Shown: positions 1-60,538 of the stretch, piece by piece
How the letters are laid out: each line of letters starts with the position of its first letter
How positions within the stretch are numbered: the stretch's first letter is position 1
Source of the DNA: a virus
Taxonomy: Duplodnaviria > Caudoviricetes
DNA length: 60,538 bases
IMG/VR virus record: IMGVR_UViG_3300005095_000141
Location: 1 to 60,538 of that record
Direction: 5' to 3' (one strand)
Notes under the pieces: model-generated
What the model saw: only the letters and a program-made list of their open reading frames with translations
Told to the model about the DNA's origin: nothing
Databases searched by the model: none
Translations under genes and position numbers: made by a program

Positions 1-91
1 TAAGAACTCGTATATTATACCGTTGTATGCCCGTCTTACCGGTGCTGGTAGCATACGTGTTGCTGGCTATGCTTTTCTTGATAGGTGGAGT
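1..91. repeat. Terminal direct repeat (assembly overlap), copy 1
   Basis: Bases 1-91 are identical to 60448-60538, and the E2 ORF reads through the junction, so the genome is circular or permuted. Confidence 0.97.
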
Positions 92-1078
92 AATGCGTTG
101 ATTGAGAGGTTGTTGAGGGAGTATGATGTTGTGGCGTTTGCGTATGGGTATGGTAATGGCCCGGTTGTATGTAGTGTTGCTTCGCAGGTATATGGCGGCG
201 GCACCGGTGTTCCGGCTGTGCTTGTACGGTCGCCTAGTACTGAGGCTTCGAATGTAGTGGATGCACTTACCGGTTTCCGCGGTGTATGCTATGTTGATGA
301 TGACACGTTCTTCTGCAGTGTTACCGATAGCGATGGCCGTATGCATGTGTTTGGCAGTACGAATTTCTTCGAGTACCGGTCTAGCCGTGCCGCCGGCGTT
401 ATGGTGGTGCTTAGAAGGTATTTCGGCAGTGACAGGGTTGAGGACGCCTATGTGATGGAGACCCTGCGCGACCTGTTCGGCGCTGTGCAGAACACTGTTG
501 TTGCTGAGACCCGTCTTGTAAGCTACCGTGTTAACGCTGTGTTCGACGTTGTGCCGGGGCGTGAAAAGCTGTATATGGGCAGGTACTGTACCGACTATAC
601 CGGTGATGAGTGCCTGTTTGGACTGGAGCGCCTTGTTGATTTTACAGGTAACCGTGTAGTGCTTAGATATGATAGTAGGCGTGGCATGGAGTACGTTGTG
701 TTGCCGGAGCCGTTCCGTGTTACCGGTAAGCTTGTAGTGTACGCTGTTGGCAGTTCCAGTAGATTGAGCGATGAGGGCATACCGCTTAGCCTATACGGAG
801 ACCTGTGGATAAGGTTTGACAACCAGTTGTTCAGGCACCCGAACAACAGTGACAGCGGCTCGGTGTGTCTGGGAGGCTATGAGTTGCCACGCTATACTGG
901 TAGGGGTGATACTGTGGATGAGCTTAGACGTGTGCTTGACACCGCCGTGTCTATACTGAGCATGCCGACCAGTAATGCGTTTAACAGCTCGTTTATTGAC
1001 TATGTGCGTGAATACTGTGATACGCATAGGTGCGAGGAAGGAGTGTTCAGGATGGATGAGGCGTGGGGCACCGGGTAG
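1..1078 (+). CDS. E2/UBC-like ubiquitin-conjugating protein, 3' part (gene starts at ATG 60269 and spans the junction; 418 aa in total)
   Basis: FRHPNNSDSGSVCLG matches the UBC signature HPN-x-G-x-[IV]-C-L (Cys codon 866-868), followed by the UBC-like helix VLDTAVSILSMPTSNAFN. Confidence 0.8.
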   Translation, partial: KNSYIIPLYARLTGAGSIRVAGYAFLDRWSNALIERLLREYDVVAFAYGYGNGPVVCSVASQVYGGGTGVPAVLVRSPSTEASNVVDALTGFRGVCYVDDDTFFCSVTDSDGRMHVFGSTNFFEYRSSRAAGVMVVLRRYFGSDRVEDAYVMETLRDLFGAVQNTVVAETRLVSYRVNAVFDVVPGREKLYMGRYCTDYTGDECLFGLERLVDFTGNRVVLRYDSRRGMEYVVLPEPFRVTGKLVVYAVGSSSRLSDEGIPLSLYGDLWIRFDNQLFRHPNNSDSGSVCLGGYELPRYTGRGDTVDELRRVLDTAVSILSMPTSNAFNSSFIDYVREYCDTHRCEEGVFRMDEAWGTG

Positions 1079-1080
1079 TA

Positions 1081-1099
1081 TGTGCTCTGCATATACTGG
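1081..1099 (+). promoter_or_regulatory. 19-bp viral motif copy (upstream of Ubl)
   Basis: TGTGCTCTG-CATAT-ACTGG. Confidence 0.7.
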
Positions 1100-1126
1100 A
1101 ATATGGAACAGTAGGAGGTGTATGGG

Positions 1127-1333
1127 TTGCCTAAAGTAGTAATAGCCGGGAACGAGTACGAGGTAACAGGTACTGGCGAGGAGATAGTTAAGTTTATACT
1201 GGAGAAGGCGGCTGAGCTTGGCTGGGCAAGTGTACGCATATTTGCCGATGGGAAGGTTGTACCCGAGGGCGATGTACAGGCGCTTGAGCAGGCTTCGACG
1301 ATTGAGGTTGTTAAGGCGGACGTAGCGGCTTAG
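1127..1333 (+). CDS. Small ubiquitin-like (beta-grasp) protein with C-terminus DVAA
   Basis: About 68 aa with a beta-beta-alpha-beta-beta pattern (KVVIAG-NEYEV-helix-VRIFADGKVV-TIEVVK) and a free small-residue tail; directly follows E2; GGAGGTG RBS before TTG 1127 (track start 1118). Confidence 0.7.
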   Translation: MPKVVIAGNEYEVTGTGEEIVKFILEKAAELGWASVRIFADGKVVPEGDVQALEQASTIEVVKADVAA

Positions 1334-1424
1334 CCGTGTATGTGGCGTAGGGCTTAGCTTAAAGGGTTTTTTCCACGTGCCTGTAATACCGGGAAAGCCG
1401 TGCACTGGGGGTGTCTGAGGCGGT

Positions 1425-1685
1425 GTGCCGCTGATGTATATGCCCCCGGTGTTCGGCCCCGACGGGTTGGAGGTGTATGCGTGTATGGATGGGGAGAAAA
1501 AGGTTATTGTCTGTGACCTGATTGAGAAGAGTGTTAAGGAGAAGGGAGCCGTTATTGATACTGAGTGGTGGGCTGAGCACGCTGTTTTTACGAAGAAGGA
1601 GCACGACGCAGTAGCTGTTGTAGCCGATAACGGGCTGATGCTTGTGATTATTGATGGGAAGGCTCGTGTCGGAAGGATACAGTAG
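1425..1685 (+). CDS. Hypothetical protein
   Basis: ORF with GAGGCGGTG RBS-like site and genome-typical codon usage. Confidence 0.65.
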   Translation: MPLMYMPPVFGPDGLEVYACMDGEKKVIVCDLIEKSVKEKGAVIDTEWWAEHAVFTKKEHDAVAVVADNGLMLVIIDGKARVGRIQ

Positions 1686-1763
1686 TATGTGTGGAGGGAA
1701 AGGCTTTTTTATTTGTCGTGCAGATTATTACCCAAACAAAAAGGTTAGGTCGGGTGGTAAGTT

Positions 1764-2003
1764 ATGAATTGGGTAGATGAGCTGTGTAAGATTAGGCGTA
1801 TAGCCCAGATGATGGTGGATGCGATAGACCGTGTAATGGATGATGATATGGATTGTTTGGATGAGCTACGGTATTTCCTGCACATGGCTGGTACCGATAT
1901 TGCGGATGCGATGAAGAGCGAGGGAGCGATACCGATTGCCGTGATGTTTGTGAACAGGAACTACGAGCACGTGATTAGATGTGTTGAGGGGCGTTTAGAG
2001 TAA
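1764..2003 (+). CDS. Hypothetical helical protein
   Basis: ORF with GGTGG RBS downstream of a BRE/TATA-like element (GAAAGGCTTTTTTATT, about 1698-1713). Confidence 0.7.
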   Translation: MNWVDELCKIRRIAQMMVDAIDRVMDDDMDCLDELRYFLHMAGTDIADAMKSEGAIPIAVMFVNRNYEHVIRCVEGRLE

Positions 2004-2045
2004 TGTGTTTTTTACTGTGCATCGGGTTCGAGTGGGGTGTGTGTA

Positions 2046-2870
2046 ATGGTTAGTCTGGCCGAGTTTGTACCGGAGCTGAAAAAGGTTCGTACAGGCAGTA
2101 CTGGTGGTGAAGAGAAGCTGGCCAAGGGAAGCGAGATATGCTTGTGGTTGCCCGGTAAGAAGGGCTGGTTTAAGACGAAGTATTGCTACAAGAGGAGTGT
2201 TGTGACGAGCTGGTTGCAGAAGGCGATACGTCGTGGTGACTGGATACGGGCGGCTTGGGCTGGTCTGATACTGGGGCAGAATGAGCCGTGGTATTTCTGG
2301 CACCGTGCACGTATTATTGCTGTTGAGGACTGCCTTGGTAGCCCGGAGCTGTTCGGCCTTGTGTATGGTATGATGCGTGAATTCGAGGCGCTTACCGGTT
2401 ACCGTATGTCGAAGGAGGATAAGAGGCAGTTGTTGAAGCTGGTTGACCTGGTATGTGCCAGTACCGGTGATGCCGACCTGTGCGATGGGTTGCACGAGTA
2501 TGTGAATAATTTGACCGGGTTTAAGGGGCCGGTGAAGAACTGGGATGCGCTGAGACTGATTGTTGCCGTTAGTGTGTTGCTGGCTAGGGCGAAACATGAC
2601 CGTAGTTCTGATGCGTTCCTTGACCTGATAACGGAGATTGTGAACCGTTTGAGCGATGGACGTGTGGATGAGGATAACGAGGCTGTTAGGTGGTTGGAGG
2701 AGCTGAGTAGGCCGCCTGAGTATGTGTTTGATATGCATGTGCTTGGTAAGGCGGCCCGTGTTAGCTGGGTTGAGAGTAGCCGTACCGTGAATAATACTGA
2801 GGAGTACGAGGAGTTCCGTGGGCTGTGGGAGCGGCTGTACCGTGCTGTTGGTGCGGCTGATGATTACTAG
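2046..2870 (+). CDS. Stand-alone MgsA/RarA C-terminal-like helical domain protein (no ATPase domain)
   Basis: SWLQKAIRRGD...A...FWHRARIIAVED and PEYVFDMH resemble the RarA/MgsA post-AAA domain; no Walker motifs. Confidence 0.6.
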   Translation: MVSLAEFVPELKKVRTGSTGGEEKLAKGSEICLWLPGKKGWFKTKYCYKRSVVTSWLQKAIRRGDWIRAAWAGLILGQNEPWYFWHRARIIAVEDCLGSPELFGLVYGMMREFEALTGYRMSKEDKRQLLKLVDLVCASTGDADLCDGLHEYVNNLTGFKGPVKNWDALRLIVAVSVLLARAKHDRSSDAFLDLITEIVNRLSDGRVDEDNEAVRWLEELSRPPEYVFDMHVLGKAARVSWVESSRTVNNTEEYEEFRGLWERLYRAVGAADDY

Positions 2871-3165
2871 GCTTGTTTTTCCCGTTGTGTGTATGTGTTT
2901 GTGGTTTGCCCCGGTACTGGGTGTTCTGGCCGGTGCTGGTGTTTTTTGTACGGTTTCTGTCTTTGTTATACTGTATATTGTACGGTATGGTATGGTATGG
3001 TTTCCGTATATTGTACGGTTGTTTCTGTTCTGTGCTGGTTTGCGATGTGTTTGTGATGGTGTTTTTTCGTGGGCCGGACGTTTTTTGTGGGGGTGTGTTT
3101 CTGGTGTTTGACTTAGGTGTTTTACCGGTTGGCTGTGTCTGTACTGGTTATTTGAGTGGTGTGGA
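2871..3165. repeat. T-rich non-coding region with (TATGG)3 and TATATTGTACGG direct repeats
   Basis: Repeats are visible at about 2945-3020; the track ORFs here are low-complexity. Confidence 0.6.
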
Positions 3166-3182
3166 TAAGAAACTTTTTAAAC
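3165..3182 (+). promoter_or_regulatory. Canonical archaeal BRE-TATA promoter
   Basis: ATAAGAAACTTTTTAAA upstream of an operon start. Confidence 0.6.
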
Positions 3183-3235
3183 CGTCACGAGAACATTTAC
3201 ACAACAAACAAAATGTAACGGGTAGGTGTATAGGA

Positions 3236-3547
3236 TTGGGTAGGAGGAAGAGTAGGCGGGTTGTCCCCGCACCTGTACCGTACTGGAAAAGAATAGCTTT
3301 TTTAGAAGACCGTGCTACGCAGATAAGGTTTGTCCGGTTCAGCCTGATAAGGAAGGATGAGAAGGCTGGACGTTACCGCTACAGTGTACAGGTGTTCGAT
3401 GCCGATAATGGCAGGCCCGGACGGGTGTACGTTGTTAGTGACCGTAGGCTGGACAGGTTCGGCCTGTGGAACGCGGTGCAGTGCTATTTCAGATTCGGCG
3501 ATACCGAGATGGATGGGGTAAGGGTTGAGAAGGAGGTGTGGAAGTAA
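3236..3547 (+). CDS. Hypothetical basic protein
   Basis: Coding-like 3' half of track ORF 2873..3547; probable TTG start after GGTAGGTG; stop overlaps the next start (TAATG). Confidence 0.65.
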   Translation: MGRRKSRRVVPAPVPYWKRIAFLEDRATQIRFVRFSLIRKDEKAGRYRYSVQVFDADNGRPGRVYVVSDRRLDRFGLWNAVQCYFRFGDTEMDGVRVEKEVWK

Positions 3548-4179
3548 TGATTGGGACTGAGGAGATTAGGTCGTCGGTTGAGAGCGGTGGGTACTGGAGT
3601 TTTACCGAGGATGAGCGCTGGGGTAGATGCCGTGAAGTAGTTGTTACCGAGTATGGGGAGGCGGTGTGTAAGGATACTGGTGAGGTGCTTGGGTATGCTT
3701 GGGATGGTAGTCCGTCTGCGGTTGGGGATGATACTGGTGTTGTGTTTAGTGATGTGAAGCCGATTAGCGGTAAGACTGTCTGGTATAGTGTGTCTGCTGA
3801 GCTGAAGAAGAAGGTTGGTGTTGCCGAGGAACTGCTTGGGGAGAGGCTGGACTGGTTTGTACCGGTGCTTGCAGAGTATGGTGGCTGGGCACGCCGTAAT
3901 AGTGGTGGGCTTGGCATGTTTGCCCGTGTTGTGTCTGGGAAGACGGTAGCGTTGTTCAGCCTGTACTACCGGTACCTTGAGGGTAAGATGTCGTACAGCG
4001 AGTTTAGGGAGAAGGCACGCAGTATCGGGTTCCTCTATATTGATAAGAGGTTGCTGTACAAGTTTAGGCTGTGGCATGACGGTGTCAGCCCCGATGATGC
4101 TGTATTGTTTGATAAGAAGGCCGGCGTGTATAGGCGTGTGTCTGAGATAAGGTTTGAGGACGTGTTTCCCCGTAAGTAG
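3547..4179 (+). CDS. TFIIB/TFB-type zinc-ribbon protein
   Basis: CREVVVTEYGEAVCKDTGEVLG resembles the crenarchaeal TFB ribbon (GE-x-[IV]-C-x-x-TGEVL); no recognisable cyclin repeats. Confidence 0.55.
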   Translation: MIGTEEIRSSVESGGYWSFTEDERWGRCREVVVTEYGEAVCKDTGEVLGYAWDGSPSAVGDDTGVVFSDVKPISGKTVWYSVSAELKKKVGVAEELLGERLDWFVPVLAEYGGWARRNSGGLGMFARVVSGKTVALFSLYYRYLEGKMSYSEFREKARSIGFLYIDKRLLYKFRLWHDGVSPDDAVLFDKKAGVYRRVSEIRFEDVFPRK

Positions 4180-4246
4180 AGTGTGTTTTTCCGGCTGTGT
4201 TTCTGTGCTTTGCTTATACTGGACTTGTACTGTACCGGGTGGTTGT

Positions 4247-4726
4247 ATGGTGGCTAGGTCTTCTGTACTGGAGTATGAGGGTATTGTGGGCGGCGGTGTT
4301 ATTAATGCTGTTTTTAGCCCTAGGAAGGGACGGTTTGCGAAGCCGTTCGATGCCGTGCCGAGCTATAACGGTGCTGTTGTGCTGAAGTACCGGTTGTTGC
4401 CGGGCAAGTATGTTGTTGTTAATGCCCGTGTTGAGGGTGACCCGTTTGTAAGTGGTGGTGCCATAGAGATTGTGTTTGAGGGTATGCGTGTACTGGGTGC
4501 TGGAGTGTTAGAGAATGGTGGCACCGTGTCTGTTGTGTATGATACTGGTGTGAAGCAGGTGTTTCTACGGCATATTGTAAGGGCGGCTACCCGTACCTAT
4601 AGTTCGCTGGAGCATGTGTTCCGCTGGCTGTGCAGACGATACGATACCGATAGCTGGCAGTGGCTGGTTGACCTTGTATTCGACAATACCGGTAAGAAGG
4701 TTGTTGTAGAGATTAGAGAGGAGTGA
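4247..4726 (+). CDS. Hypothetical protein
   Basis: ATG after GGTGG and a copy of the 19-bp motif. Confidence 0.7.
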   Translation: MVARSSVLEYEGIVGGGVINAVFSPRKGRFAKPFDAVPSYNGAVVLKYRLLPGKYVVVNARVEGDPFVSGGAIEIVFEGMRVLGAGVLENGGTVSVVYDTGVKQVFLRHIVRAATRTYSSLEHVFRWLCRRYDTDSWQWLVDLVFDNTGKKVVVEIREE

Positions 4727-4732
4727 CTTGTT

Positions 4733-5161
4733 ATGGATAAGAAGGACAGGGAGCGTATTAGGCGTGTACTGGGTGTTGAACCCGGTGATAGGAGCCGTGT
4801 GTTCACGCCTAGGGCTAGACAGTATGTGCTGAACAGGTTTGGCCGTGGTACGCCGCTTAGCCTTGACCGTGAAGGGATATGTGACCTGTGCGGCCGTAAG
4901 GATGTTGTGTTCCCGAATACCGGGGAGATACCGGTGTGCCGTAGGCATCTGGGCAAGTTTGTACGTATTGGGCAGTTGAAGGCGCTTGGACGTGTGCAGG
5001 TGGTTACGAATTTCTATGGGCGGATACGGTGTTTTTTCTGTGGCAGGGCTGATCCGGTGATGTATTTTGTTAGGCCGAGGAAGCTGTGTATTAGGTGTAT
5101 GTGGTATGTGCTTGGCAGGCAGAGCAAGAGGCTTAGTATTGACGGTACCCGTATAACGTAG
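4733..5161 (+). CDS. Zinc-finger protein
   Basis: CDLC..CRRH and CFFC..CIRC pairs. Confidence 0.7.
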   Translation: MDKKDRERIRRVLGVEPGDRSRVFTPRARQYVLNRFGRGTPLSLDREGICDLCGRKDVVFPNTGEIPVCRRHLGKFVRIGQLKALGRVQVVTNFYGRIRCFFCGRADPVMYFVRPRKLCIRCMWYVLGRQSKRLSIDGTRIT

Positions 5162-5166
5162 CCGGG

Positions 5167-5544
5167 GTGGTGTGCTTGACTGATGCGTATAGTCTTGACA
5201 GGGATGATACTGAGCATTTGAAGAGTAAGGTTGCGGAGTACTGCGGTAAGCTGTGTAGTGGGCTGGTTGACCCGGCTGGTTTTGCCTTGTACCGGTGGTT
5301 TGCTGGTTTGCTTGGGACTAGGTGTGCCTGTATTGACGATGTTGTGCATGCCTATGTTGTTGTTTTGTGTGGCGATACCTATGTCTTTGTTGACAGTGAC
5401 TGTGATACCGATTTTGATGTTGCTGTGCGTTCTGCTATTGATAAGTGTGGGTGTGCGTATGAATGTTTTGCGGACGAGATGCGTTCTGCAGGCTTTATAC
5501 CGGTTCGTGTGCTGGATGTTGTGCGTGTAGATGCTGGGCGGTAG
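5167..5544 (+). CDS. Hypothetical Cys-rich protein
   Basis: ORF within an operon. Confidence 0.6.
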   Translation: MVCLTDAYSLDRDDTEHLKSKVAEYCGKLCSGLVDPAGFALYRWFAGLLGTRCACIDDVVHAYVVVLCGDTYVFVDSDCDTDFDVAVRSAIDKCGCAYECFADEMRSAGFIPVRVLDVVRVDAGR

Positions 5545-5577
5545 GGTGTCTGTGCTTTGATTCTAACGGTGAATAAA

Positions 5578-5949
5578 ATGTCGGGTAAGAGCCTGTACCG
5601 TAGGGTTGCGGAGTATATTGTTCGTGATAGTTTTTTACAGGTTGGCCCTGAAAGCAGTATGAGAAAAGTAGCTGAGTGGCTTGAGAACGACGGCAAGGTC
5701 GTCCATACCGGTGCATGGGTGGCTGGAGAGATTGCTGTGCTGGTGCATGAGTGCGGTAAGAAGATGGGTGTTATTACCGAGGAGGGCGGAGAGGCTGTTA
5801 CTGTTACGTTTCCGAACAAGGGGTTAGCAGAGATACCGGTGTATGACAGTGACAGGCTGGTGGATTTTGTTGAGCGCATACTGATGGTTGTGAAGCTGTT
5901 CTATGGTGACGAGATGATTAAGTGTATTGAGAAGGAGGTGAACATGTGA
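5578..5949 (+). CDS. Hypothetical protein
   Basis: ATG 27 nt after the start of the motif at 5551. Confidence 0.7.
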   Translation: MSGKSLYRRVAEYIVRDSFLQVGPESSMRKVAEWLENDGKVVHTGAWVAGEIAVLVHECGKKMGVITEEGGEAVTVTFPNKGLAEIPVYDSDRLVDFVERILMVVKLFYGDEMIKCIEKEVNM

Positions 5950-6263
5950 TGGCTGGTCTGTTCGTACCGGAGGATGTTGTGTTTGAAACTGTTGTTGTAG
6001 AGCACGGTGTTGCTGACGTGTACGGTGTTGTCCATACCGATAAGGGAGTGTTTAAGCTACATATTGAGGGGTGTGCGGACGACTTTGTGGCTGACAGGGA
6101 TTCGATAAAGGTGTTACTGGAGCTTGCGGCTGAGAGGGCTGAGACGGAGGTTGACGGCATATACAGGTACTGTGCCGGCAGGTTTGATGTGAAGATTACT
6201 ATGCTTGAAGGTGTTGATTGGCGTATAAGAATTGCTGAGTCTTGTAAGGGAGGTGGTAAGTGA
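5949..6263 (+). CDS. Hypothetical protein
   Basis: GGAGGTG RBS and TGATG coupling. Confidence 0.7.
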   Translation: MAGLFVPEDVVFETVVVEHGVADVYGVVHTDKGVFKLHIEGCADDFVADRDSIKVLLELAAERAETEVDGIYRYCAGRFDVKITMLEGVDWRIRIAESCKGGGK

Positions 6264-6463
6264 TGGGTAGGGCGTGTCCTGTGTGTGGCCGTGGAATGTT
6301 TAGCAGGAAGAAGCTGTTGGAGCATATTAAGAGGGAGCACCCGGCGTACTACCATAAGTGGATAGCGAATAGCCCGAGATACAGTGTCTGCCATTCACTA
6401 ATGATTGCGAAGAAGCGTGGCAGGGATGTTAAGATTCCGTCGCAGTGCAGGGGTGGTGCTTGA
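6263..6463 (+). CDS. C2H2 zinc-finger protein
   Basis: CPVCGRGMFSRKKLLEHIKREH. Confidence 0.8.
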   Translation: MGRACPVCGRGMFSRKKLLEHIKREHPAYYHKWIANSPRYSVCHSLMIAKKRGRDVKIPSQCRGGA

Positions 6464-6639
6464 TGAAGAGTGTTATTGGAATTGTACCGTATGTGAAGCT
6501 TGAGGATATGCTTAGGAAGAGGGACTTCGAGGTTGCCAAGTACGTTGTCGAGGTGATGTGTAGGGGTAGTGTTAGTGTAGAAGGGGGCAATATTGTGTGT
6601 AAGGAGAAGGACAGGGTTGTTACGATAGAGCTGTACTAG
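6463..6639 (+). CDS. Hypothetical protein
   Basis: TGATG coupling. Confidence 0.6.
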   Translation: MKSVIGIVPYVKLEDMLRKRDFEVAKYVVEVMCRGSVSVEGGNIVCKEKDRVVTIELY

Positions 6640-6645
6640 TGGTGG

Positions 6646-6894
6646 TTGTGGATGAGTATTAGGGCTTACGATATACTGTCTAGGATTGACTTGGAGGGCG
6701 TTGGTAAGGCTAAGCAGGTTATTGACGCTATTAGGGAGTTGCTTAGGGCTAGCTGTGCCAGTGTAGAGGAGTTTGACAATGGCTTTGACTGCCTGATACC
6801 GGATGAGGAGACTGTGCTTGATAATGGCGATGTTGTTGTTGCCCGGTGGGTTGTACTGCGTGTAATGTATGGTGTTGAGAAGAAGGAGGTGTAG
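6646..6894 (+). CDS. Hypothetical protein
   Basis: ORF within an operon. Confidence 0.6.
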   Translation: MWMSIRAYDILSRIDLEGVGKAKQVIDAIRELLRASCASVEEFDNGFDCLIPDEETVLDNGDVVVARWVVLRVMYGVEKKEV

Positions 6895-6898
6895 CTGT

Positions 6899-7219
6899 GT
6901 GTCTAAGACTAGGATTGTGTGCTGGGCAGGCGGTAGGGAGACCGTTGTTGATGATGCTGAGAACTGTATATGGGAGATTGCCAGGCTCGGTAACGGCAGG
7001 ATGTACGTTGTGGTAGGCGATGTGAAGCTACCGGTTGATGTTAACGAGGCTGTTAAGAAGATGATGGTTGAGAAGGGCTTGGTCATACAGTCCCGTATGT
7101 GGCTGGCGCACCGCTACAGCAATGATATTGAGGATGAGGAGTGGAGAAGCGAGGTGTTCAGCAGGATTATGAGGGCGCTTAGAGAGTACGAGATGATGTG
7201 GTTCGACGGGAAGAGATGA
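6899..7219 (+). CDS. Hypothetical protein
   Basis: GGAGGTG RBS and GTG start. Confidence 0.6.
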   Translation: MSKTRIVCWAGGRETVVDDAENCIWEIARLGNGRMYVVVGDVKLPVDVNEAVKKMMVEKGLVIQSRMWLAHRYSNDIEDEEWRSEVFSRIMRALREYEMMWFDGKR

Positions 7220-7410
7220 CCGTGTATTTTTGTTTTTGTTACTGTGGTGATAAGGAGTTTTTGGGTCTTGAAGCTGTTAGTGCTGATACCGATTCTGACG
7301 CTGTTAGCAGGGCTGTTGAGAAGGTTCGTGGATACGGCGATGTATGTGATGAACGTATTGTGTGCGAGTGTGTTGATAAGGACTATTTTGTTGTGACGGC
7401 TAGGCTTTGA
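7216..7410 (+). CDS. Hypothetical protein
   Basis: ATGA overlap with the previous gene. Confidence 0.55.
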   Translation: MTVYFCFCYCGDKEFLGLEAVSADTDSDAVSRAVEKVRGYGDVCDERIVCECVDKDYFVVTARL

Positions 7411-7440
7411 TGTGCTTTGATTTTACCGGGGGTGGTTGTT

Positions 7441-7632
7441 ATGGATGGTGTTGATTCACGGTGTGTGGAGGAGTGTTGTTCTGCCGGGTTCGGGCTTAGT
7501 GACTGTGTTTTTATGTGTGCTGGTGTATTAGAGTATTTGGGTACGGACTGGTATGGAACGGTGCATTACCGGGTTGGTGTTGCCCGTATTAGTCTTAGGC
7601 GAGACGTGTTTGCAGGTGGTGGTACGTGGTGA
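7441..7632 (+). CDS. Small Cys-rich protein (twin Cx3C-like)
   Basis: CVEEC..CVFMC; follows the motif at 7411. Confidence 0.55.
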   Translation: MDGVDSRCVEECCSAGFGLSDCVFMCAGVLEYLGTDWYGTVHYRVGVARISLRRDVFAGGGTW

Positions 7633-8018: not shown

Positions 8019-8027
8019 ATAATACGG
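8009..8027 (+). promoter_or_regulatory. 19-bp viral motif copy (upstream of PCNA); other copies at 4204, 5551, 7411, 10615, 15228, 21438, 22462, 34995, 36361 and 50935
   Basis: TGTGCTTTG-AATAA-TACGG; fixed spacing in all copies. Confidence 0.75.
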
Positions 8028-8038
8028 AGGTGTACTGG

Positions 8039-48619: not shown

Positions 48620-48638
48620 ACGTGTATGGGTGGTCTGC

Positions 48639-53945: not shown

Positions 53946-54398
53946 TTGAAGACCCCGCTTGATGATGTTAAGGATACGGCTAAACGTGTTATTGCTGAAG
54001 GCGTCGCGTCTGGAAAGAAGTTTGAAGAGATAGCGCAGGAGCTTAGCGAGATGCTAGGTAAGAAGATAACGCCTAGTATGGTGCGGTATTTCTACTACAG
54101 AGAGTTTGGGGATGTTGTTTCTGATACGCCTAGAAGCAGTACCGATGTTGTTGACGATGAAGGAGAATTTGATTTGGAGAAGGAATTGATATGGCTGTAC
54201 CGTGTGCAGAAGAAACGTATTAGACGGCTGGTTAGACTGGAGGAAGAAGCTGGACTGCCACTGCCTGATACGAGCAAGAACATTGATATTGCAAGCAGGA
54301 TACTGGAGAAGCTTGGAAAAATAGGAAGTGCAGAGGATGAGAACATTATTGAGAAGGTGCTTGAGGCGCTGGAGTCTGATACTGGTACTGAGCAGTAG
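53946..54398 (+). CDS. terS: Putative terminase small subunit
   Basis: N-terminal HTH-like segment; coupled to the large subunit. Confidence 0.6.
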   Translation: MKTPLDDVKDTAKRVIAEGVASGKKFEEIAQELSEMLGKKITPSMVRYFYYREFGDVVSDTPRSSTDVVDDEGEFDLEKELIWLYRVQKKRIRRLVRLEEEAGLPLPDTSKNIDIASRILEKLGKIGSAEDENIIEKVLEALESDTGTEQ

Positions 54399-55831
54399 TG
54401 GTGTTTGTTTTGAACAAGCTTGTTGAGAAGGCGCTTAGGAATTTCGACAAGTTTGTAGCGGCTTTGTTTGTAGGGCCGGACGGCAAGCCGTTGCGGCTGA
54501 CGTATTACCAGAAAGAGTTTATTATGAAGGCGCTTACGAGGAAGCCGGGCAAGTTTATTTTCTTGGCGGCGACCCGTAGCGGTAAGACGACCAGTACAGC
54601 CGTGCTTGCAATACTGTATGGATTGCTGTACCCGAGAGAAGAGATTGTTGTTGTTGCGCCCACGTTTAGACAGGCAAACATACTGTTTGGAAGGATACGA
54701 GAATTCATTATGTCCAGCCCGATACTGATGCGCATGATAGACAGGGAGAAGAGCTTTAGGCACGACCTGATACACTTTAAGAACAAGACTGTACTGAGAG
54801 CGTTGTCTGCAGGTAACCCTGAGGCGTTGCTTGGCTTCGGTGCTACTGTGCTGATTGTTGATGAGGCTGGTAGCATACCGGACAATATTTTCAGAACCCG
54901 TATATTGAGGATGATTATGAGTAACCCGCTTGGAAGGAAGCCTGTGCTGATACTGCTTGGTACGCCGCACGTACACAACTATATGTGGAGGCTGTGGGTA
55001 GAAGGTGATGAGAAAGAAGTGTTTAAGATGCGTGTTACTTGGAGGGACGCTGTTAAGGCTGGAATAATGAGGAAGGATGAGGTGGAGTTTGCCCGTAAGA
55101 TGCTTAGCGAGACAGAGTTTAGGATGTGGTATGAGGCGGAGTTCGTGAATACTGAGGGCAAGTTCTTCGATATTGATGATATTAGGAAGTGTGCTGTTGC
55201 CCGTGGAATAGTTGGTGCGAAGCCTTTGCCTAGGAGACCGGGGCATATACGGATACTGAGTGTTGATGTTGCACGGCTGGGGGATGACGAGACAGCCGCT
55301 GTTATTGTTGAGGTGCCGAAGAACTTTACGCCGGAGGAAGGCATAGTAGAAGTGCTTGGAGTGTACCGGCGCAAGAAGATGTACTTGAATGAGACAATAG
55401 GCTGGGTACTGCACTTGGCAGAGGAATGGCTGGTAGATTATGTAGCTGTTGACGCTATAGGAATGGGCGTCGGGGTCTGCGACGTGCTTAGGGAGAAGCT
55501 TGGTTTTTACCGTGTTGTTGATGTTTCGGCGGCTGGTAGGGAGCGTATTGATATGTTTATGCTGTTTAGGCGTCTTGCTAGGGAGAGGCGTATTATTTTG
55601 CCTGAGAATGAAGATATAGTTAGGCAGTTCTGGTCTTATGAGGTTCGCTATGGCGGTAATGGTGATGTGCGCATTATTAAGAAGGCCGGGTACCGTGATG
55701 ATGTTGCCGATGCTATTATTTATGGTGTTTGGGTGGGCTACAAGTACAGTAACTACGCTGGCTATACCGTGCATGTGTCTGACAAGATAGCCAATATTGT
55801 TGAGCGCATGTCTGCTAGTGGAAGCCTGTGA
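54398..55831 (+). CDS. terL: Terminase large subunit
   Basis: YQ, RSGKTT, VAPTFRQA, IVDEAG, GTP, YEAEF, VDVARLGDD and DDVADA. Confidence 0.95.
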   Translation: MVFVLNKLVEKALRNFDKFVAALFVGPDGKPLRLTYYQKEFIMKALTRKPGKFIFLAATRSGKTTSTAVLAILYGLLYPREEIVVVAPTFRQANILFGRIREFIMSSPILMRMIDREKSFRHDLIHFKNKTVLRALSAGNPEALLGFGATVLIVDEAGSIPDNIFRTRILRMIMSNPLGRKPVLILLGTPHVHNYMWRLWVEGDEKEVFKMRVTWRDAVKAGIMRKDEVEFARKMLSETEFRMWYEAEFVNTEGKFFDIDDIRKCAVARGIVGAKPLPRRPGHIRILSVDVARLGDDETAAVIVEVPKNFTPEEGIVEVLGVYRRKKMYLNETIGWVLHLAEEWLVDYVAVDAIGMGVGVCDVLREKLGFYRVVDVSAAGRERIDMFMLFRRLARERRIILPENEDIVRQFWSYEVRYGGNGDVRIIKKAGYRDDVADAIIYGVWVGYKYSNYAGYTVHVSDKIANIVERMSASGSL

Positions 55832-55878: not shown

Positions 55879-56598
55879 ATGCGTGTTAAGAAAATACGTG
55901 CTAGTTCGTCTAAATGGAGTACTGGGTATAAGCCTGTAACTGAATGCCCGTATATGAAGATTGGTAAGCTGATAGTGCTTGTTGATTTTTCGTTGTTCGA
56001 GAAGATAAGCAGGCTTGCAGACGAGATTGATACCGAGTTCCTGATGTATGCTAAGTACAAGAAGCTTGGTGAAAATGAAATATACGTTGTTGATGACGTG
56101 TTTGTACCGAAACAGAAAGCTAGTGCTACGTTTGTAGAGGTAGAGGACAAGATACCGGAGAAGTTTGCTACTGAGACTGTTGTTATACATAAGCACCCGC
56201 CGAATATAGAGTCGTTCAGCAGAACAGATTATGAGTACATTAATGCGAATAACGATGTTAGTCTGCTGTGGTGTGATGGAGAGTTTACTGATGCTACTGT
56301 AAGGCGCAAGCTACCGTGTGGTAAGACTGCTATTGCGAGTGCAGATACTGTTAAGATGTATGTTGTTCTGCCTACTGGTAAGAAGGTTGATAAGCTGATA
56401 GATGGTATTAAGAAATGGGTTGAGGAGGCGAAGAAGAAGATAAAGCAGGAATATGTGCATGTGGCGAATGGCAAGACTATTCTTGACTATAGCGATTATG
56501 GTGGGTGGAGGACTAGCCTGTACGACATACCGGATTATGATGATGAGATAGAGGAGCTGTATAATGGAGAGATTAGTAGGATGATGCGTAGAAGGTGA
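55879..56598 (+). CDS. JAB/MPN+ metallo-isopeptidase (Ubl deconjugase)
   Basis: TEF (catalytic Glu), VPKQ and VIHKHP....FS.TD (JAMM HxH-x7-S-x2-D). Confidence 0.85.
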   Translation: MRVKKIRASSSKWSTGYKPVTECPYMKIGKLIVLVDFSLFEKISRLADEIDTEFLMYAKYKKLGENEIYVVDDVFVPKQKASATFVEVEDKIPEKFATETVVIHKHPPNIESFSRTDYEYINANNDVSLLWCDGEFTDATVRRKLPCGKTAIASADTVKMYVVLPTGKKVDKLIDGIKKWVEEAKKKIKQEYVHVANGKTILDYSDYGGWRTSLYDIPDYDDEIEELYNGEISRMMRRR

Positions 56599-57260: not shown

Positions 57261-57646
57261 AATGGCGTGTTGACGATATGGATGATTTGGGAGACAAGGT
57301 CTGGGTGACCGTTATATTTGAGATAGATAAGGATGACTGGGTTGAGAGGTCTGTGTCTAGGTATAGTGAACTGCGTGATAAATGGACGAAGCTGTACCGT
57401 AAGGAGCTTGACATATATAGGAAGCTTGGTGGAAGAACTGGAGATGTTGTTGAGGTGTATAAGGACGGCACGGTTGTTATTGAGTATGGTGGTTTGCTGG
57501 GGAGGAAGCGTGTGAAGAAAGTGGTGTCTGCTGAGCTTAAACGCATTATTGATGAGAGAGCTGTGGTTGAGAAGGCTGTTAGCAATATTGTTGACAGGCT
57601 TGCTGAGAGGATTTTCGAGGAACTGTGCGGTGATAATGGTTATTAG
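57254..57646 (+). CDS. Hypothetical protein
   Basis: GGAGGTGA RBS. Confidence 0.65.
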   Translation: MVKWRVDDMDDLGDKVWVTVIFEIDKDDWVERSVSRYSELRDKWTKLYRKELDIYRKLGGRTGDVVEVYKDGTVVIEYGGLLGRKRVKKVVSAELKRIIDERAVVEKAVSNIVDRLAERIFEELCGDNGY

Positions 57647-57679
57647 TTGTTTGTTGTATAGTTTGTAGTGGTGGTAGGT

Positions 57680-58066
57680 ATGCCGTTTACTGGTAGGAGT
57701 GCGTTGAACCGTATTGTTGGTTTGCTTGAGGGTGTGCTTCGTGTTGCTAGTGATGTTGTAAGCGGTAGTTCTGGCAGTGTTTCTACTGGTGATGCTGAGG
57801 CTGTTGTTGCTAGTGTTGATTTGTCTGGCTGTGTGCGTGGCGTTGTGTTGGTTGCTAATACTGGTGGTAATGGTGTGGATGTTGTTGTGTCTGCTGTTGT
57901 TCCCGGCGGTAGTGTTTCGTACCAGTTGTTTAGCGGTAGTGTTGCGGCTGGTGCTGTACAGCGTGTGGATGTTGATTTTCCCTGTAAGGTCAGTGTGTTT
58001 GCTAAGAATAGTACGAGTGGTGCGGGCAGTACTGTTGTTGTTGACTGGGTTGGCTGGAAAGCCTAG
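57680..58066 (+). CDS. Small beta-rich protein (possibly structural)
   Basis: ATG after GGTGG; G/V/S-rich. Confidence 0.5.
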   Translation: MPFTGRSALNRIVGLLEGVLRVASDVVSGSSGSVSTGDAEAVVASVDLSGCVRGVVLVANTGGNGVDVVVSAVVPGGSVSYQLFSGSVAAGAVQRVDVDFPCKVSVFAKNSTSGAGSTVVVDWVGWKA

Positions 58067-58160
58067 CACTGTTTTTTAGCCTGTACTGAACAATGTGTGC
58101 CGGGCAATGTACAGGCGCCGGACACAGACCACCATATAGAATACAGGAGAGGAGAACACA

Positions 58161-58511
58161 ATGCCCAGACACATACACACAATAATAACAGAGAAACTAT
58201 ACTGGGTAATAGACAGTATTAGGGGCCGGTACGGTGTTAGTAGTGGTGCTTTGCTAGAGTTTGTTTTCTGGGCTTGCTGGGAGGATAGTGGTTGTAGGCG
58301 GCGTGTTTTGGACTGGCTTGCTGGCCGTGGTGTTCGTACTGGTAGTACTGGTGGTGCTGGCGATACTGGTTCTGGTTCGGCTGGTTCTGCTGGTGGTGTG
58401 GATAGTACCGGTAATGCTGGTGGTGGTGGTGCTTCGTCTTTTGCTGAGTGGTTGGTGCGTGGGTGGGGTGACCCGTTGAACCAGTTGTTGTTTGAGCTTG
58501 GCGGTGACTAG
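58161..58511 (+). CDS. Putative RHH-like regulator
   Basis: MPRHIHTIITEKLYWVIDSIRGRYGVSSGALLE has a beta-alpha-alpha pattern; GGAGAGGAG RBS. Confidence 0.5.
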   Translation: MPRHIHTIITEKLYWVIDSIRGRYGVSSGALLEFVFWACWEDSGCRRRVLDWLAGRGVRTGSTGGAGDTGSGSAGSAGGVDSTGNAGGGGASSFAEWLVRGWGDPLNQLLFELGGD

Positions 58512-58523
58512 GCTGGTTTGTGC

Positions 58524-58542
58524 TGTGCTTTGTTTTTACTGG
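58524..58542 (+). promoter_or_regulatory. 19-bp viral motif copy (upstream of E1)
   Basis: TGTGCTTTG-TTTTT-ACTGG. Confidence 0.75.
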
Positions 58543-58570
58543 TATTTACTGGGTTTGTGGGTGGTGTGTT

Positions 58571-59416
58571 GTGTCTGGTCGGGATTTGCTGTGGTTTCTT
58601 AGGCGGGCGGCGGCTGGAGGGTCTGTTTCTGGCAGTACTGGTTCTGTGGCTGGTGATTCTAGGTCTGCTGGTGCAGACGATGCTGGCGTTGCTGTTAATA
58701 CTGGTACTGGTGGTTCTGGTGCTGGGTTTGTGTTTCCTGGTGTGCGTGCTGTTGTGTTTGGGTTGGGTGGTGTTGGTTCGTGGCTTGTGTTTCTTGCTGG
58801 TGGTTACCGGTTGTTTGGTGGTTTTGTATTGGTTGATGGTGATGTGTGGGAGCCGGTGAATAGTAATAGGTTGTGGTTGTACCCGTTTGGGGGGTTGTTG
58901 GGCCGGTGTGTTGCTGGTGGCCGGTGTTTTAAGGCTGGTTTGGCTGGTGGGTGGCTTGTGCGGCGTGCTGGCTATACTGGTGGCCGGGTAAGGGTTGTTC
59001 CCCGGTATGTGCGTGGGGTGGATGATGTGCGTGCTGTTTTGTCCCGTTACTGTACCGGTACCGGCGGTGACGGTGCTGGTTATCGTTACCCGTGTGTTGT
59101 GTTTGACTGTGTTGATTCGCCGCGTGTGTCTGCTGATGTTCGGTATGCTGGTGTTGGTGCTGGGTTGCCTGTTGTTAGTCTTCATTTTGACGGTGGTAGT
59201 GTTACTGGTGAGGTGTTTTTGCCGGGGTCTGGGGCTGGTGTTTTTAGTGTTGGTGGTGCTCGTGGTGGGTATGTGGCTGGTAGTGTTGCGGGGTCTAGTG
59301 TGTTGGCGGCTTGGCTTGGCGTGGTGCTTGCTTACCGTGTTCTTACTGGGGCTGTTGGTGGCTATGTGTTGGTTGGTGGTGATACTGGGTCTGGGCTTCG
59401 TGTTTTTGGCTTGTAG
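58571..59416 (+). CDS. E1/ThiF-family ubiquitin-like activating enzyme
   Basis: VFGLGGVGS (GxGxxG), VDGDVWEPVNSNR (D-x-D..NxNR), the conserved K and FDCVD. Confidence 0.85.
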   Translation: MSGRDLLWFLRRAAAGGSVSGSTGSVAGDSRSAGADDAGVAVNTGTGGSGAGFVFPGVRAVVFGLGGVGSWLVFLAGGYRLFGGFVLVDGDVWEPVNSNRLWLYPFGGLLGRCVAGGRCFKAGLAGGWLVRRAGYTGGRVRVVPRYVRGVDDVRAVLSRYCTGTGGDGAGYRYPCVVFDCVDSPRVSADVRYAGVGAGLPVVSLHFDGGSVTGEVFLPGSGAGVFSVGGARGGYVAGSVAGSSVLAAWLGVVLAYRVLTGAVGGYVLVGGDTGSGLRVFGL

Positions 59417-59417
59417 T

Positions 59418-59436
59418 TGTGCTTTGTTTTTACCGG
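59418..59436 (+). promoter_or_regulatory. 19-bp viral motif copy (upstream of the unknown ORF-E2 pair)
   Basis: TGTGCTTTG-TTTTT-ACCGG. Confidence 0.75.
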
Positions 59437-59437
59437 T

Positions 59438-59501
59438 ATCTGTACTGTATCTGTAACTGTACTGTATTGTATCTGTATTGGTATGGTATGTATTGGTATG
59501 T
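59438..59501. repeat. Short (TGTAY)/(TATGG)-type repeats
   Basis: tgtactgtatctgtaactgtactgtattgtatctgtattggtatggtatg; similar to 2970-3020. Confidence 0.55.
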
Positions 59502-60262
59502 GTTTGGGGGTGTTGGTTGGGTTGTTTGTGCGGAGTGTGGATGTTGGTGGTGTTAGGCGGGCTGGTTCTGGGCGTGTTCCTGGTCGTTACCGGGTTGGTG
59601 ATTGGGGTGTTGAGTGGTTGTTTGTTCTTGATGGTGCTGGTGGGTTCGGTGTTGTTGCCGGGTTTTTGCTTGGTTTGGGGGGTTCTGGTGTTGTTGTTGT
59701 TGGTAGTGGTGGTGTGCCGGGTGTTGTTGCGCCTTGTTATGGTGTGCCGGGGGGTGCTGGGCTTGGTGGTTGGCCGTCTTGTTTTGCTGGTTTGGGCGGT
59801 GTTGTTTCTTACCGGGTTGTTGCTGAGTGGTTGTCTTCCGGTGTTGTGTTTCAGGGTGTTGGGGATGTGTTTGTTGTTGATGTTGGGCTTGGGTTGCCGG
59901 TTTCTTCTTGGCTTTACCGGGGCGGTGTGGGGCTTGTCTTTACCGGTGTTGATGGGGGTGTGTATGTGTTTGTTGCTAGGAGGCTGTATCTTTCTGATTT
60001 GCGCAGGATAGGCCGTGTGTCTGGCGGTGGTGATGGATGGTTTGTGCGTGGGGAGGAGTGCGGTGCGCTGTGCTCTGGTTTAAACGTACCCGGTGCCCTT
60101 ACCGGTGATGAGGGCTTGTTCGGGGGGTATGGCTTGGCTGGATGGGTTAGCAATGTGTTGCTGGAGGGTATTGTTACTGTGCTGAGGCGTACTAGTGATA
60201 GGGCGGTGATGTACCGGCTTGACACTGGTTCTGGCGGTGTTGAGAGACGTGTTTGGAGGTGA
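59498..60262 (+). CDS. Unknown lysine-free protein between E1 and E2
   Basis: Open frame 59417..60262 whose stop overlaps the E2 RBS; start uncertain. Confidence 0.55.
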   Translation: MCLGVLVGLFVRSVDVGGVRRAGSGRVPGRYRVGDWGVEWLFVLDGAGGFGVVAGFLLGLGGSGVVVVGSGGVPGVVAPCYGVPGGAGLGGWPSCFAGLGGVVSYRVVAEWLSSGVVFQGVGDVFVVDVGLGLPVSSWLYRGGVGLVFTGVDGGVYVFVARRLYLSDLRRIGRVSGGGDGWFVRGEECGALCSGLNVPGALTGDEGLFGGYGLAGWVSNVLLEGIVTVLRRTSDRAVMYRLDTGSGGVERRVWR

Positions 60263-60268
60263 CCGTGT

Positions 60269-60538
60269 ATGAGCTGGAGTGTTGAGAGCTGGTATGCATG
60301 GTTTTCCCGCCGGGATACCGGTGCTGGGCGTGGTACTGGTGGTGATGCGGGGTCTGGGCCTGTTAGGACGCTGAGCTTTAGGCGTGCTGGTGCGGACGTT
60401 GTGTTTGACCTGTACGGTGATGTTAACGACAGGTTTGTGCGTGCTGTTAAGAACTCGTATATTATACCGTTGTATGCCCGTCTTACCGGTGCTGGTAGCA
60501 TACGTGTTGCTGGCTATGCTTTTCTTGATAGGTGGAGT
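60269..60538 (+). CDS. E2/UBC-like protein, 5' part (continues at base 92)
   Basis: ATG 60269 follows RBS GGAGGTGA; the frame MSWSVESWYAWFSRR...RAVKNSYIIPLYARLT is open and continuous with ORF 23..1078. Confidence 0.85.
   Translation, partial: MSWSVESWYAWFSRRDTGAGRGTGGDAGSGPVRTLSFRRAGADVVFDLYGDVNDRFVRAVKNSYIIPLYARLTGAGSIRVAGYAFLDRWS
60448..60538. repeat. Terminal direct repeat (assembly overlap), copy 2
   Basis: Identical to bases 1-91. Confidence 0.97.

Follow-up and report, generated by a model that had tools for sequence, protein, structure and literature searches.

A complete tailed-virus genome of a new archaeal lineage, with a probably thermophilic and possibly Thermoprotei host

Which archaea do head-tailed viruses infect in the hottest habitats, and are the Thermoprotei, whose cultured virome is known for unique non-tailed morphotypes, among them? 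This question is raised by IMG/VR record IMGVR_UViG_3300005095_000141, a stand-alone virus record of 60,538 nt that was analysed over its whole length and is referred to here as the window. A first reading of its letters (the original prediction) had proposed a head-tailed virus of a thermophilic, possibly crenarchaeal, host. The window is a complete virus genome, and it is almost certainly that of a tailed archaeal virus. That this complete, non-integrating, siphovirus-type archaeal Caudoviricetes genome stands for an undescribed family-level lineage with a hyperthermophilic archaeal host, most likely one of the Thermoprotei, is a reading that we consider evenly balanced between right and wrong.

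In the accessible text of PMC8651126, the hosts on which archaeal tailed viruses have been isolated are Halobacteria and Methanobacteriaceae, and proviruses are mentioned in Thaumarchaeota and Aigarchaeota; this agrees with the statement in the original prediction that cultured representatives infect halophiles and methanogens. The reference list of the same paper cites MFTV1, from a hyperthermophilic methanogen. Three head-tailed families have been proposed for Thermococcales in the accessible text of PMC12934983, and four for Caldarchaeales, with hosts assigned by spacers and genome content, in that of a preprint (10.1101/2025.08.23.671958). Proviruses of Thermoproteota are reported from Bathyarchaeia alone (PMC11705971), and Thermoproteia are given just as a software-predicted host class (PMC13552757); PMC13573593 and PMC10791045 had nothing specific to contribute. 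Our search of the full-text literature, which does not cover subscription journals and supplements, found no paper defining a Thermoprotei tailed-virus lineage.

Genome, virion module and relatives

The completeness of the genome is evident from its ends, and the record's own classification is direct terminal repeats, with 100% completeness.

1 to 91, equal to 60448 to 60538: terminal direct repeat, 91 nt, 100% identity
60269 to 60538 through the terminal repeat, then 92 to 1078, + strand: g01, 418 aa in all

Since the 91-nt end repeat is exact, the unique genome measures 60,447 bp; since the open reading frame (ORF) of g01 spans the repeat, the ends of the record are not those of the physical genome, which is circular or circularly permuted. 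About 90 ORFs (greedy set) fill it almost without gaps, all of them on the + strand, and a tRNA scan of the window returned none. The Pfam scan took in 60 of the 90 ORFs, 29 of which matched a family at the thresholds used. The genes that define the virion are the following.

27170 to 28369, + strand: g46, HK97-type major capsid protein (MCP) of an SU10-like family (PHROG, tblastn and tree)
19743 to 21425, + strand: g37, portal protein with two zinc-ribbon inserts (Phage_portal 6.1e-7, below the Pfam curated cutoff)
24779 to 27148, + strand: g45, prohead serine protease fused to a long scaffold-like C-terminal region (Peptidase_S78 2.5e-8, Peptidase_S78_2 9.3e-6)
53946 to 55831, + strand: g81, small terminase candidate by position, and g82, large terminase (TerL)
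14230 to 15225, + strand: g30, tail tube protein (Phage_tube_2 E 1.1e-8, above cutoff)
15250 to 15707, + strand: g31 and the overlapping g32, tail assembly chaperone pair (g31 weakly, Phage_TAC_5 0.0027, below cutoff; pair by position)
15754 to 17100, + strand: g33, tape measure protein, 448 aa (phrog_305 3.1e-5, phrog_1272 1e-4)

The HK97-type capsid, portal and terminase named in the original prediction were all recovered. At the level of sequence comparison, g46 is confirmed as an HK97-type capsid protein: it matches phrog_24667, "major head protein", with an E of 3.7e-33, and its homologues bear PF17236 (SU10_MCP), g46 itself having no Pfam match. A tblastn search of the phage collection with this protein returned nine records, all of them archaeal tailed viruses (eight haloarchaeal and one assigned to Methanofastidiosa); the best described match was the MCP of HCTV-1 (29%, E 8e-33), and that of HVTV-1 also reached 29%. 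The portal aligns with annotated Druskaviridae portals at 26-27% identity (E 2e-36), and TerL g82 matches TerL_ATPase (1.8e-9), Terminase_6N (3.5e-9) and Terminase_6C (1.2e-3). The curated Pfam cutoffs are passed by TerL g82, the S78 protease g45 and the tail tube g30.

The tail, too, is of the kind originally predicted. The ORFs of g31 and g32 overlap by 40 nt and occupy the canonical position before the tape measure, a place that would suit a chaperone pair. With a tube and a tape measure present, and with no match to Phage_sheath_1 at E<=1 in six frames of the window (a very divergent sheath could escape this search), a non-contractile tail of siphovirus type is confirmed in so far as genes alone can reveal it.

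Relatives of this virus are numerous at the protein level. A megablast of 14000-34000 found no DNA similarity to described viruses, and scans of IMG/VR with MCP or TerL as single proteins gave no relatives. There are 157 homologues of the MCP (best 82%), 571 MCP relatives in IMG/VR (best 58%), and TerL representatives at 37-48% identity. Related contigs share a syntenic core, which consists of the metallophosphatase, portal, g44, protease, MCP, g55, ATPase, PriS-PriL, PolB, OB-fold (oligonucleotide/oligosaccharide-binding fold) protein and Cas4-like nuclease genes. Three of its members are the following.

18964 to 19752, + strand: g36, calcineurin-like metallophosphoesterase (Metallophos 1.7e-5; homologues in 6 related loci, beside the portal)
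23528 to 24772, + strand: g44, 414 aa, between portal and protease (homologues in 12 related loci)
34256 to 34987, + strand: g55, conserved virion-module protein, connector candidate by position (in 27 related loci; phrog_17057, of unknown function, 1.3e-7)

Eleven genes are in synteny with L003, L004, L009, L081 and other related loci, and the uncultured IMG/VR records behind L003/L004, L007, L009 and L016 carry the same core at 31-58% identity. By eye g44 resembles ATP-grasp proteins, and it has no Pfam or PADLOC match. One related record, G034 (57,952 nt in whole, loci L100-L102), has 14 genes in common with the window, including those of PCNA and TerL, and is like it in its one-strand coding and depletion of C. 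G034 is classed as a 100% complete "provirus", yet it has no integrase, tRNA or terminal repeat, and its composition is uniform and virus-like to both ends; the label looks doubtful. As evidence of integration, G034 was set aside, as it has no integrase, tRNA or host-like flank. A single tRNA was seen in 26 related loci, a tRNA-Ile with anticodon TAT (L023, 9223-9314).

The position of the window among these relatives was examined in an MCP tree of 125 rows, made up of 118 database matches of at least 330 aa, three loci from metagenome-assembled genomes (MAGs), three described viruses and the window; the short sequences P0072 and P0085, the partial loci L086 and L088 and three duplicates were left out. 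The window belongs to a 4-row clade within a 17-row clade (Shimodaira-Hasegawa-like approximate likelihood ratio test, SH-aLRT, 97), itself within a 75-row clade (SH-aLRT 99), and Druskaviridae and vir519 form the outgroups. By sequence comparison, this is a new family-level lineage of archaeal Caudoviricetes, the candidate families of recent preprints having been compared by description alone. Nothing in the results indicates Euryarchaeota, and the virus lies far outside the classified families in the phage collection; either outcome would have spoken against the original prediction.

The nearest classified relatives, by MCP (29%) and portal (26-27%), are the Druskaviridae (Thumleimavirales; HCTV-1, HCTV-5 and HVTV-1). 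Like the window, they are archaeal Caudoviricetes of siphovirus type, and related haloviruses also have family B polymerases; their genomes, however, are about 102-105 kb and their hosts halophiles, as against 60 kb here, and the identities of MCP and portal are far below family level, so that the window is not in Druskaviridae. The MCP of Caudoviricetes sp. vir519 (BK063666, Methanofastidiosa host) also falls in PHROG 24667 (30%), and its portal is a distant match. This virus has 38.8 kb, comes from mangrove sediment and forms a long isolated branch in the MCP tree, and the annotated part inspected shows no block of PolB, PCNA and primase.

Two further groups could be compared by description, from the accessible text of their sources. 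The Caldarchaeales candidate families (Erebus-, Hypnos-, Moros- and Nyxviridae) are likewise uncultured, head-tailed and geothermal, with archaea-specific MCP clades, and TFII-like proteins are given as a trait of Nyxviridae and MCM as one of Erebusviridae (10.1101/2025.08.23.671958); neither trait was found in the window. The Thermococcales candidates, Satan-, Astaroth- and Beelzebubviridae, and MFTV1 are likewise head-tailed viruses of hyperthermophilic archaea; "Satanviridae" are described without an integrase and "Beelzebubviridae" with PolB (PMC12934983). The hosts in this group are euryarchaea of marine vents, and no label or sequence link to the clade of the window was seen.

An archaeo-eukaryotic replication block

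The virion genes are accompanied by replication genes of archaeo-eukaryotic type, most of them contiguous.

8015 to 8779, + strand: g20, PCNA-like sliding clamp
36337 to 37497, + strand: g60, RecA-superfamily ATPase, RadA/KaiC/DnaB-like (start uncertain; in 15 related loci)
37500 to 38552, + strand: g61, fused PriS-PriL primase, 350 aa, with an archaeo-eukaryotic primase (AEP) catalytic half and an Fe-S domain
38458 to 40593, + strand: g62, family B DNA polymerase with a 3'-5' exonuclease domain (DNA_pol_B 3.6e-37, exonuclease 3.9e-9)
40559 to 41985, + strand: g63, OB-fold protein (single-stranded DNA-binding candidate), and g64, Cas4-like PD-(D/E)XK nuclease

The archaeal PCNA of the original prediction holds up, as do its primase, here a single fused gene, and its RadA-like ATPase. 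The clamp g20 has no Pfam match; its top three PDB matches are all S. solfataricus PCNA3 (E about 0.002), and its Atlas model (predicted template modelling score, pTM, 0.82) superposes on archaeal PCNA clusters over about 226 residues with template modelling (TM) scores of 0.78-0.82. A homologue at 24% is present in G034. The ATPase g60 matches AAA_24 (7.9e-7), AAA_25 (1.1e-6) and Rad51 (1.2e-4), and KaiC models as well; a Cys/His cluster can be discerned by eye at its N terminus. In g61, the PriL half is recognised by the Pfam domain DNA_primase_lrg (1.9e-9), and the Pfam PriS model gave no match. A profile of 11 viral g61 orthologues matched PriS chains (7e-5 to 2e-4) as well as the Fe-S domains of PriL (0.006-0.02), and the orthologue alignment has four invariant cysteines. 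The sole described match of the fused primase is in a Methanothermobacter virus (24%). The true start of g62 probably lies downstream of 38458. The OB-fold in g63 was recognised through tRNA_anti-codon (1.8e-5, below cutoff), and g64 matches PDDEXK_1 (2.2e-14) and Cas_Cas4 (6.6e-9). A bacterial phage was rejected as an explanation, the replisome and the MCP relatives being archaeal.

No MCM helicase (PF00493), tyrosine integrase (PF00589) or serine recombinase (PF00239) was matched at E<=1 in six frames of the window, which agrees with the absence of a recognised integrase in the original prediction, and PF00589 is also missing from all ten relatives' records searched. Without an integrase, the virus would be virulent or episomal.

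One element of the original prediction fell away. The crenarchaeal-style ribbon of transcription factor B (TFB) has no counterpart above threshold: the TFIIB-ribbon model PF08271 reaches just 13 and 8.6 bits (cutoff 29), both times inside the portal gene g37. A TFB-encoding virus was therefore rejected, the TFIIB-ribbon-like signals being confined to sub-threshold zinc ribbons of the portal, which probably gave rise to the TFB reading in the original prediction. These ribbons are of CxxC type (20079-20120 and 20451-20516), with weak HypA, Rrn7 and TFIIB-ribbon-like matches, and are an unusual decoration for a portal protein.

The host

The host is very probably thermophilic, as originally predicted. 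The IVYWREL fraction of the proteome, 0.444, corresponds to about 80 C, and glutamine (1.5%) and histidine (1.2%) are rare. For the MCP, the same index is about 0.37-0.43 inside the thermophile-like 75-row clade and mostly 0.32-0.38 outside it; the labelled sequences in this clade all derive from MAGs that bear the names of thermophilic archaea, and all labelled relatives at identities of at least 45% are named after thermophilic archaea. Thermophily is set short of certainty because strand-biased composition could inflate the index. The G+C content is 42-53%, and the GC skew is positive in 30 of 30 intervals (+0.18 to +0.51). In the region of strand asymmetry (57600-60447 and 1-10000), the + strand at 58-60 kb has 10% A, 14% C, 39% G and 37% T; third-position A falls to 4% in g87-g90, against 9-20% elsewhere. 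In the related record G034, C makes up just 7.7%, and the GC skew is 0.44-0.67 across all 58 kb. Depletion of C and A and enrichment of T and G on the coding strand would fit deamination of an exposed single strand. Could such asymmetry, which shifts amino-acid usage, have produced the whole thermophile signal, so that the virus infects a mesophilic archaeon or a bacterium? The skew and the third-position bias (A 4-20%) are extreme, and contigs with bacterial and with mesophilic archaeal labels occur in the wider SU10-like MCP family. However, the MCPs with mesophile labels are not members of the 75-row clade, the labelled relatives at 45% or above are all named for thermophilic archaea, and PCNA, PriS-PriL and PolB are of archaeo-eukaryotic type, which leaves this explanation very improbable.

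One line of evidence on the identity of the thermophile comes from a decarboxylase.

23100 to 23531, + strand: g43, pyruvoyl decarboxylase of the S-adenosylmethionine decarboxylase (AdoMetDC) family (AdoMet_dc 1.6e-24; PDB AdoMetDC 2.8e-16)

The nearest cellular relatives of g43 are Thermoprotei proteins, several of them named arginine decarboxylase proenzyme. Of its 30 non-self matches, 10 carry a taxon label, directly or via their cluster, and all 10 labels are Thermoprotei: Ignisphaera, Vulcanisaeta, Thermofilum, Desulfurococcaceae and Acidilobaceae, at 41-49% identity, some of them on contigs of 291-446 kb or in a 2.37-Mb genome. The lineage of Ignisphaera was checked, and we take Vulcanisaeta, Thermofilum, Desulfurococcaceae and Acidilobaceae to be Thermoprotei. 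The stop codon of g43 overlaps the start of g44, and no AdoMetDC gene or ThiF match was present in the ten relatives' records searched. Other genes point the same way. In the 17-row MCP clade of the window, a single member has a label, and it was deposited both with an Ignisphaera MAG and with a Thermofilum genome; for TerL, a cluster at 43% has the labels Thermofilum, Ignisphaera and Nezhaarchaeales; and the best solved matches of PCNA g20, those to Sulfolobus PCNA3, point to Thermoprotei. A Thermoprotei host is the best-supported single candidate, to which we give roughly an even chance; within this group, Desulfurococcales, Thermofilales or Thermoproteales would be the most likely host type. 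The original prediction of such a host thus stands as the leading candidate on the decarboxylase, the MCP and TerL labels and PCNA3, and is held back by mixed bins, a polytomy and a want of spacers.

These and several other observations weigh against a Thermoprotei, or a firmly hyperthermophilic, host. The Zeldovich IVYWREL relation was derived for cellular proteomes. Relatives have also been binned as Caldarchaeum, Nezhaarchaeales, Aenigmatarchaeota and Nanopusillaceae, and viral contigs of one type, about 44 kb long, bear an Ignisphaera label as well as a Thermofilum one, from which it follows that the binning of such contigs is unreliable. In a decarboxylase tree of 37 rows, g43 groups with a single relative (75%) on a long branch (1.73) that is part of a polytomy, and the pair falls inside no Thermoprotei genus, which argues that the gene was acquired long ago and was not copied recently from a host; the neighbour search behind this comparison was word-based and covered 39 candidates only. 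The PCNA match is weak (E 0.002), and the structural neighbours in the Atlas are spread over many archaeal phyla. There is no CRISPR spacer, provirus junction or tRNA by which the virus could be tied to a host, the spacer tests having covered one MAG. In addition, the four head-tailed families from hot environments that were compared by description are assigned to Caldarchaeales by spacers, according to the accessible text of the preprint (10.1101/2025.08.23.671958).

The contigs of about 44 kb are near-identical (protein clusters P0031 and P0132) in the Thermofilum sp. and Ignisphaera sp. MAGs, with a shorter one in Nezhaarchaeales, an illustration of how free viral genomes end up in the bins of different hosts. 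The MAG of the spacer tests, G001, lies behind locus L081 and is labelled Aenigmatarchaeota. Positions 1-20000 of the window gave no match in it, while L081 gave two short ones (44 nt at 86% and 35 nt at 87%); there is no repeat array around either, and the one that was read is an intergenic, TATA-like stretch. G001 is probably a mixed bin: it measures 1.7 Mb, against 0.3-1.2 Mb in 30 sampled order-mates, and the MCP is missing from all 30 of these. G001 also carries two paralogues of the AdoMetDC family. The 44-nt TATA-box-like stretch on its viral contig C37 (86%) recurs on the purine-rich contig C75 (6109-6152), which suggests a second related element in the bin; the other match is at C8:27101-27135.

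If the host is not one of the Thermoprotei, other thermophilic archaea come into consideration for the same virus. It is unlikely that the virus belongs to Nezhaarchaeales, Methanomethylicia, Korarchaeia, thermophilic Bathyarchaeia or a DPANN symbiont (Aenigmatarchaeota, Nanopusillaceae). L081, whose MCP is 52% identical, is in the Aenigmatarchaeota MAG, a TerL at 42% is in a Nanopusillaceae MAG, and a Nezhaarchaeales MAG also holds a relative, but the decarboxylase neighbours are Thermoprotei, the Aenigmatarchaeota link passes through the probably mixed bin whose order-mates do not have the MCP, and a 60-kb virus with a full replisome and a sugar pathway would be large for a DPANN host. Quite unlikely, in our view, is Candidatus Caldarchaeales (Aigarchaeota), a thermophilic group that is sister to the ammonia oxidisers, although an MCP relative at 46% (P0076) was binned in a Caldarchaeum MAG, the accessible text of the preprint ties geothermal head-tailed viruses to this order (10.1101/2025.08.23.671958), and Liu 2021 mentions Aigarchaeota proviruses in the accessible text (PMC8651126). 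P0076 belongs to another MCP subclade, as sister to a Desulfurococcaceae-labelled contig; none of the ten labelled decarboxylase neighbours is from Caldarchaeales; and, of the traits described in that preprint, the TFII-like protein of Nyxviridae (sub-threshold signals only) and the MCM of Erebusviridae were not found.

A thermophilic euryarchaeon (Thermococcales, ANME-1, Methanocaldococcus or Archaeoglobi) is improbable as the host. Viruses of this kind do exist there, namely MFTV1, Ekchuahviridae and the three candidate Thermococcales families, one of them with PolB (accessible text of PMC12934983 and PMC8651126), and the only described match of the fused primase comes from the Methanothermobacter virus. 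On the other hand, no relative bears the label of a euryarchaeal thermophile, the MCPs of euryarchaeal viruses match at just 29-30% and are outgroups in the tree, and there is no euryarchaeal decarboxylase among the nearest neighbours of g43.

Proposed infection cycle and other genes

Homology shows a capsid in which MCP g46 assembles on portal g37, together with the protease-scaffold protein g45, and which the terminase g82 fills with DNA. The non-contractile tail consists of the tube g30, the chaperone pair g31/g32 and the tape measure g33, with Gp80-like fibres and DUF2341 adhesins. The virus brings its own archaeo-eukaryotic replisome, in a block syntenic in relatives, with PolB, PCNA, PriS-PriL, the RecA-like ATPase, the OB-fold protein and the Cas4-like nuclease. 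A cluster of six to eight sugar genes may make a modified amino sugar for glycosylation of the virion or the host surface, and the AdoMetDC/arginine decarboxylase (ArgDC)-family enzyme may supply polyamines that condense the DNA and stabilise it at high temperature. Infection may be virulent (lytic) or episomal.

If the Thermoprotei reading is true, Caudoviricetes would be extended to the hottest archaeal habitats and into a class known for archaea-specific morphotypes, which would have a bearing on the claim that tailed viruses are older than the split between the major lineages of archaea; the well-populated clade would also give spacer mining, enrichment and electron microscopy of hot samples something definite to aim at. 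Compact thermostable replication parts are on offer (the 350-aa fused primase, PolB and PCNA), and the viral polyamine gene makes a role in DNA packaging at 80 C open to testing. This value is tempered by the fact that the record is already public and its host inferred, and by comparable hot-environment lineages in preprints (Caldarchaeales, Thermococcales).

Transcription in the window may follow a signal of its own. The 9-mer TGTGCTTTG occurs in 15 copies, all on the + strand, against 1.19 expected, and 15 copies were reached in none of 100 shuffles.

4204, 5551, 7411, 8009, 10615, 15228, 21438, 22462, 34995, 36361, 36489, 50935, 55836, 58524 and 59418, + strand: sites of TGTGCTTTG

In 12 of the 15 sites, the motif lies at -13 to +9 nt from the preceding stop codon, and it is followed by a TATA-like segment, GG(T/A)G and then an ATG, at about 27-36 nt counted from where the motif begins. 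Relatives show no enrichment of TGTGCTTTG. The motif is a candidate promoter or operator element specific to this virus, and the 9-mer with its TATA-like segment after stop codons may mark a dozen or more transcription units. The predicted ribosome-binding sites of GGTG type are also borne out: GGTG is found 5' of 26 of the 90 provisional starts, against 10.2 expected, a count that is approximate because these starts are longest-ORF calls. The C2H2 and ribbon-helix-helix regulators of the original prediction stood in part, in that both were matched weakly and both below Pfam cutoffs.

6260 to 6463, + strand: g13, small C2H2-type zinc-finger protein, candidate regulator (zf-Di19 2.2e-5, zf-C2H2_4 1e-3, both below curated cutoffs)
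36008 to 36370, + strand: g59, ribbon-helix-helix protein, weak (RHH_1 9.9e-4, 19.4 bits against a cutoff of 20.5)
51367 to 52677, + strand: g76, nucleotidyltransferase of RNA/DNA-ligase type, weak (RNA_lig_T4_1 0.0014, below cutoff; KxDG by eye)
41988 to 50314, + strand: g65-g72, sugar-modification cluster (DegT aminotransferase, two NAD epimerase/dehydratases, a methyltransferase and two glycosyltransferases of family GT4)

Within the sugar cluster lies a ParB-like nuclease, g71. The homologue search with the DegT protein gave three matches, none with a taxon label.

Four genes that span the genome junction, g89, g01, g83 and g02, could be read as a ubiquitin-like (Ubl) conjugation set, in which the following are leads only.

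58520 to 59416, + strand: g89, G/V-rich, with ThiF/E1-like nucleotide-binding motifs
part of 1 to 1078, + strand: E2/UBC-like active-site pattern near the C terminus of g01, by eye
55879 to 56598, + strand: g83, exact JAMM-type metal-site pattern, by eye

The ThiF match of g89 (3.7e-4) reaches 20.2 bits against a cutoff of 28.1 and covers just 47 residues. The E2-like pattern of g01 appeared in none of 2000 proteome shuffles (a post hoc count), and Atlas feature matches link g01 to clusters bearing Prok-E2_D at 0.88-0.89; no Pfam, Prok-E2_D or PADLOC match was obtained for g01, and PADLOC matched none of the ten proteins given to it. The JAMM-type pattern of g83 appeared in 19 of 2000 shuffles, and g83 has no JAB or Prok-JAB match. 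AlphaFold2 (AF2) without alignments gave models that are unusable, with a mean predicted local distance difference test (pLDDT) score of 36 for g01 and 33 for g83, and single-protein scans of IMG/VR with g83, g01 and g89 gave no relatives. The small g02 (1118-1333) is a candidate beta-grasp protein without a family match and, as called, without a Gly-Gly end. The wider picture, of a clade of Thermoprotei tailed viruses of which this member has a Ubl set (g89, g01 and g83), a crenarchaeal-type polyamine decarboxylase and a strand bias from heat deamination, is a tentative one that we regard as doubtful.

The other genes of the virion region are given below.

28534 to 29253, + strand: g47, free-standing LAGLIDADG homing endonuclease (LAGLIDADG_3 1.9e-5)
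17112 to 18937, + strand: g34-g35, distal tail or baseplate candidates by position (no family match)
29436 to 32412, + strand: g49-g52, fibre/adhesin module with a Gp80-like fibre protein and two DUF2341 proteins
32419 to 33948, + strand: g53, second tape-measure-like, very hydrophobic protein (phrog_58 7.6e-5)
10866 to 13745, + strand: g26-g28, S/T-rich repeat proteins 5' of the tail module (no family match)

The endonuclease g47 is directly 3' of the MCP gene and has no homologue in the related loci searched. In the fibre/adhesin module, Gp80 scores 4.7e-6 and DUF2341 scores 6.3e-18 and 3.9e-15. Unlike g33, which is in the canonical tail position, g53 sits after the fibre genes, and it may be an ejection or membrane-penetration protein. 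Judged by their position and composition, g26-g28 are probably proteins of the virion surface or fibres.

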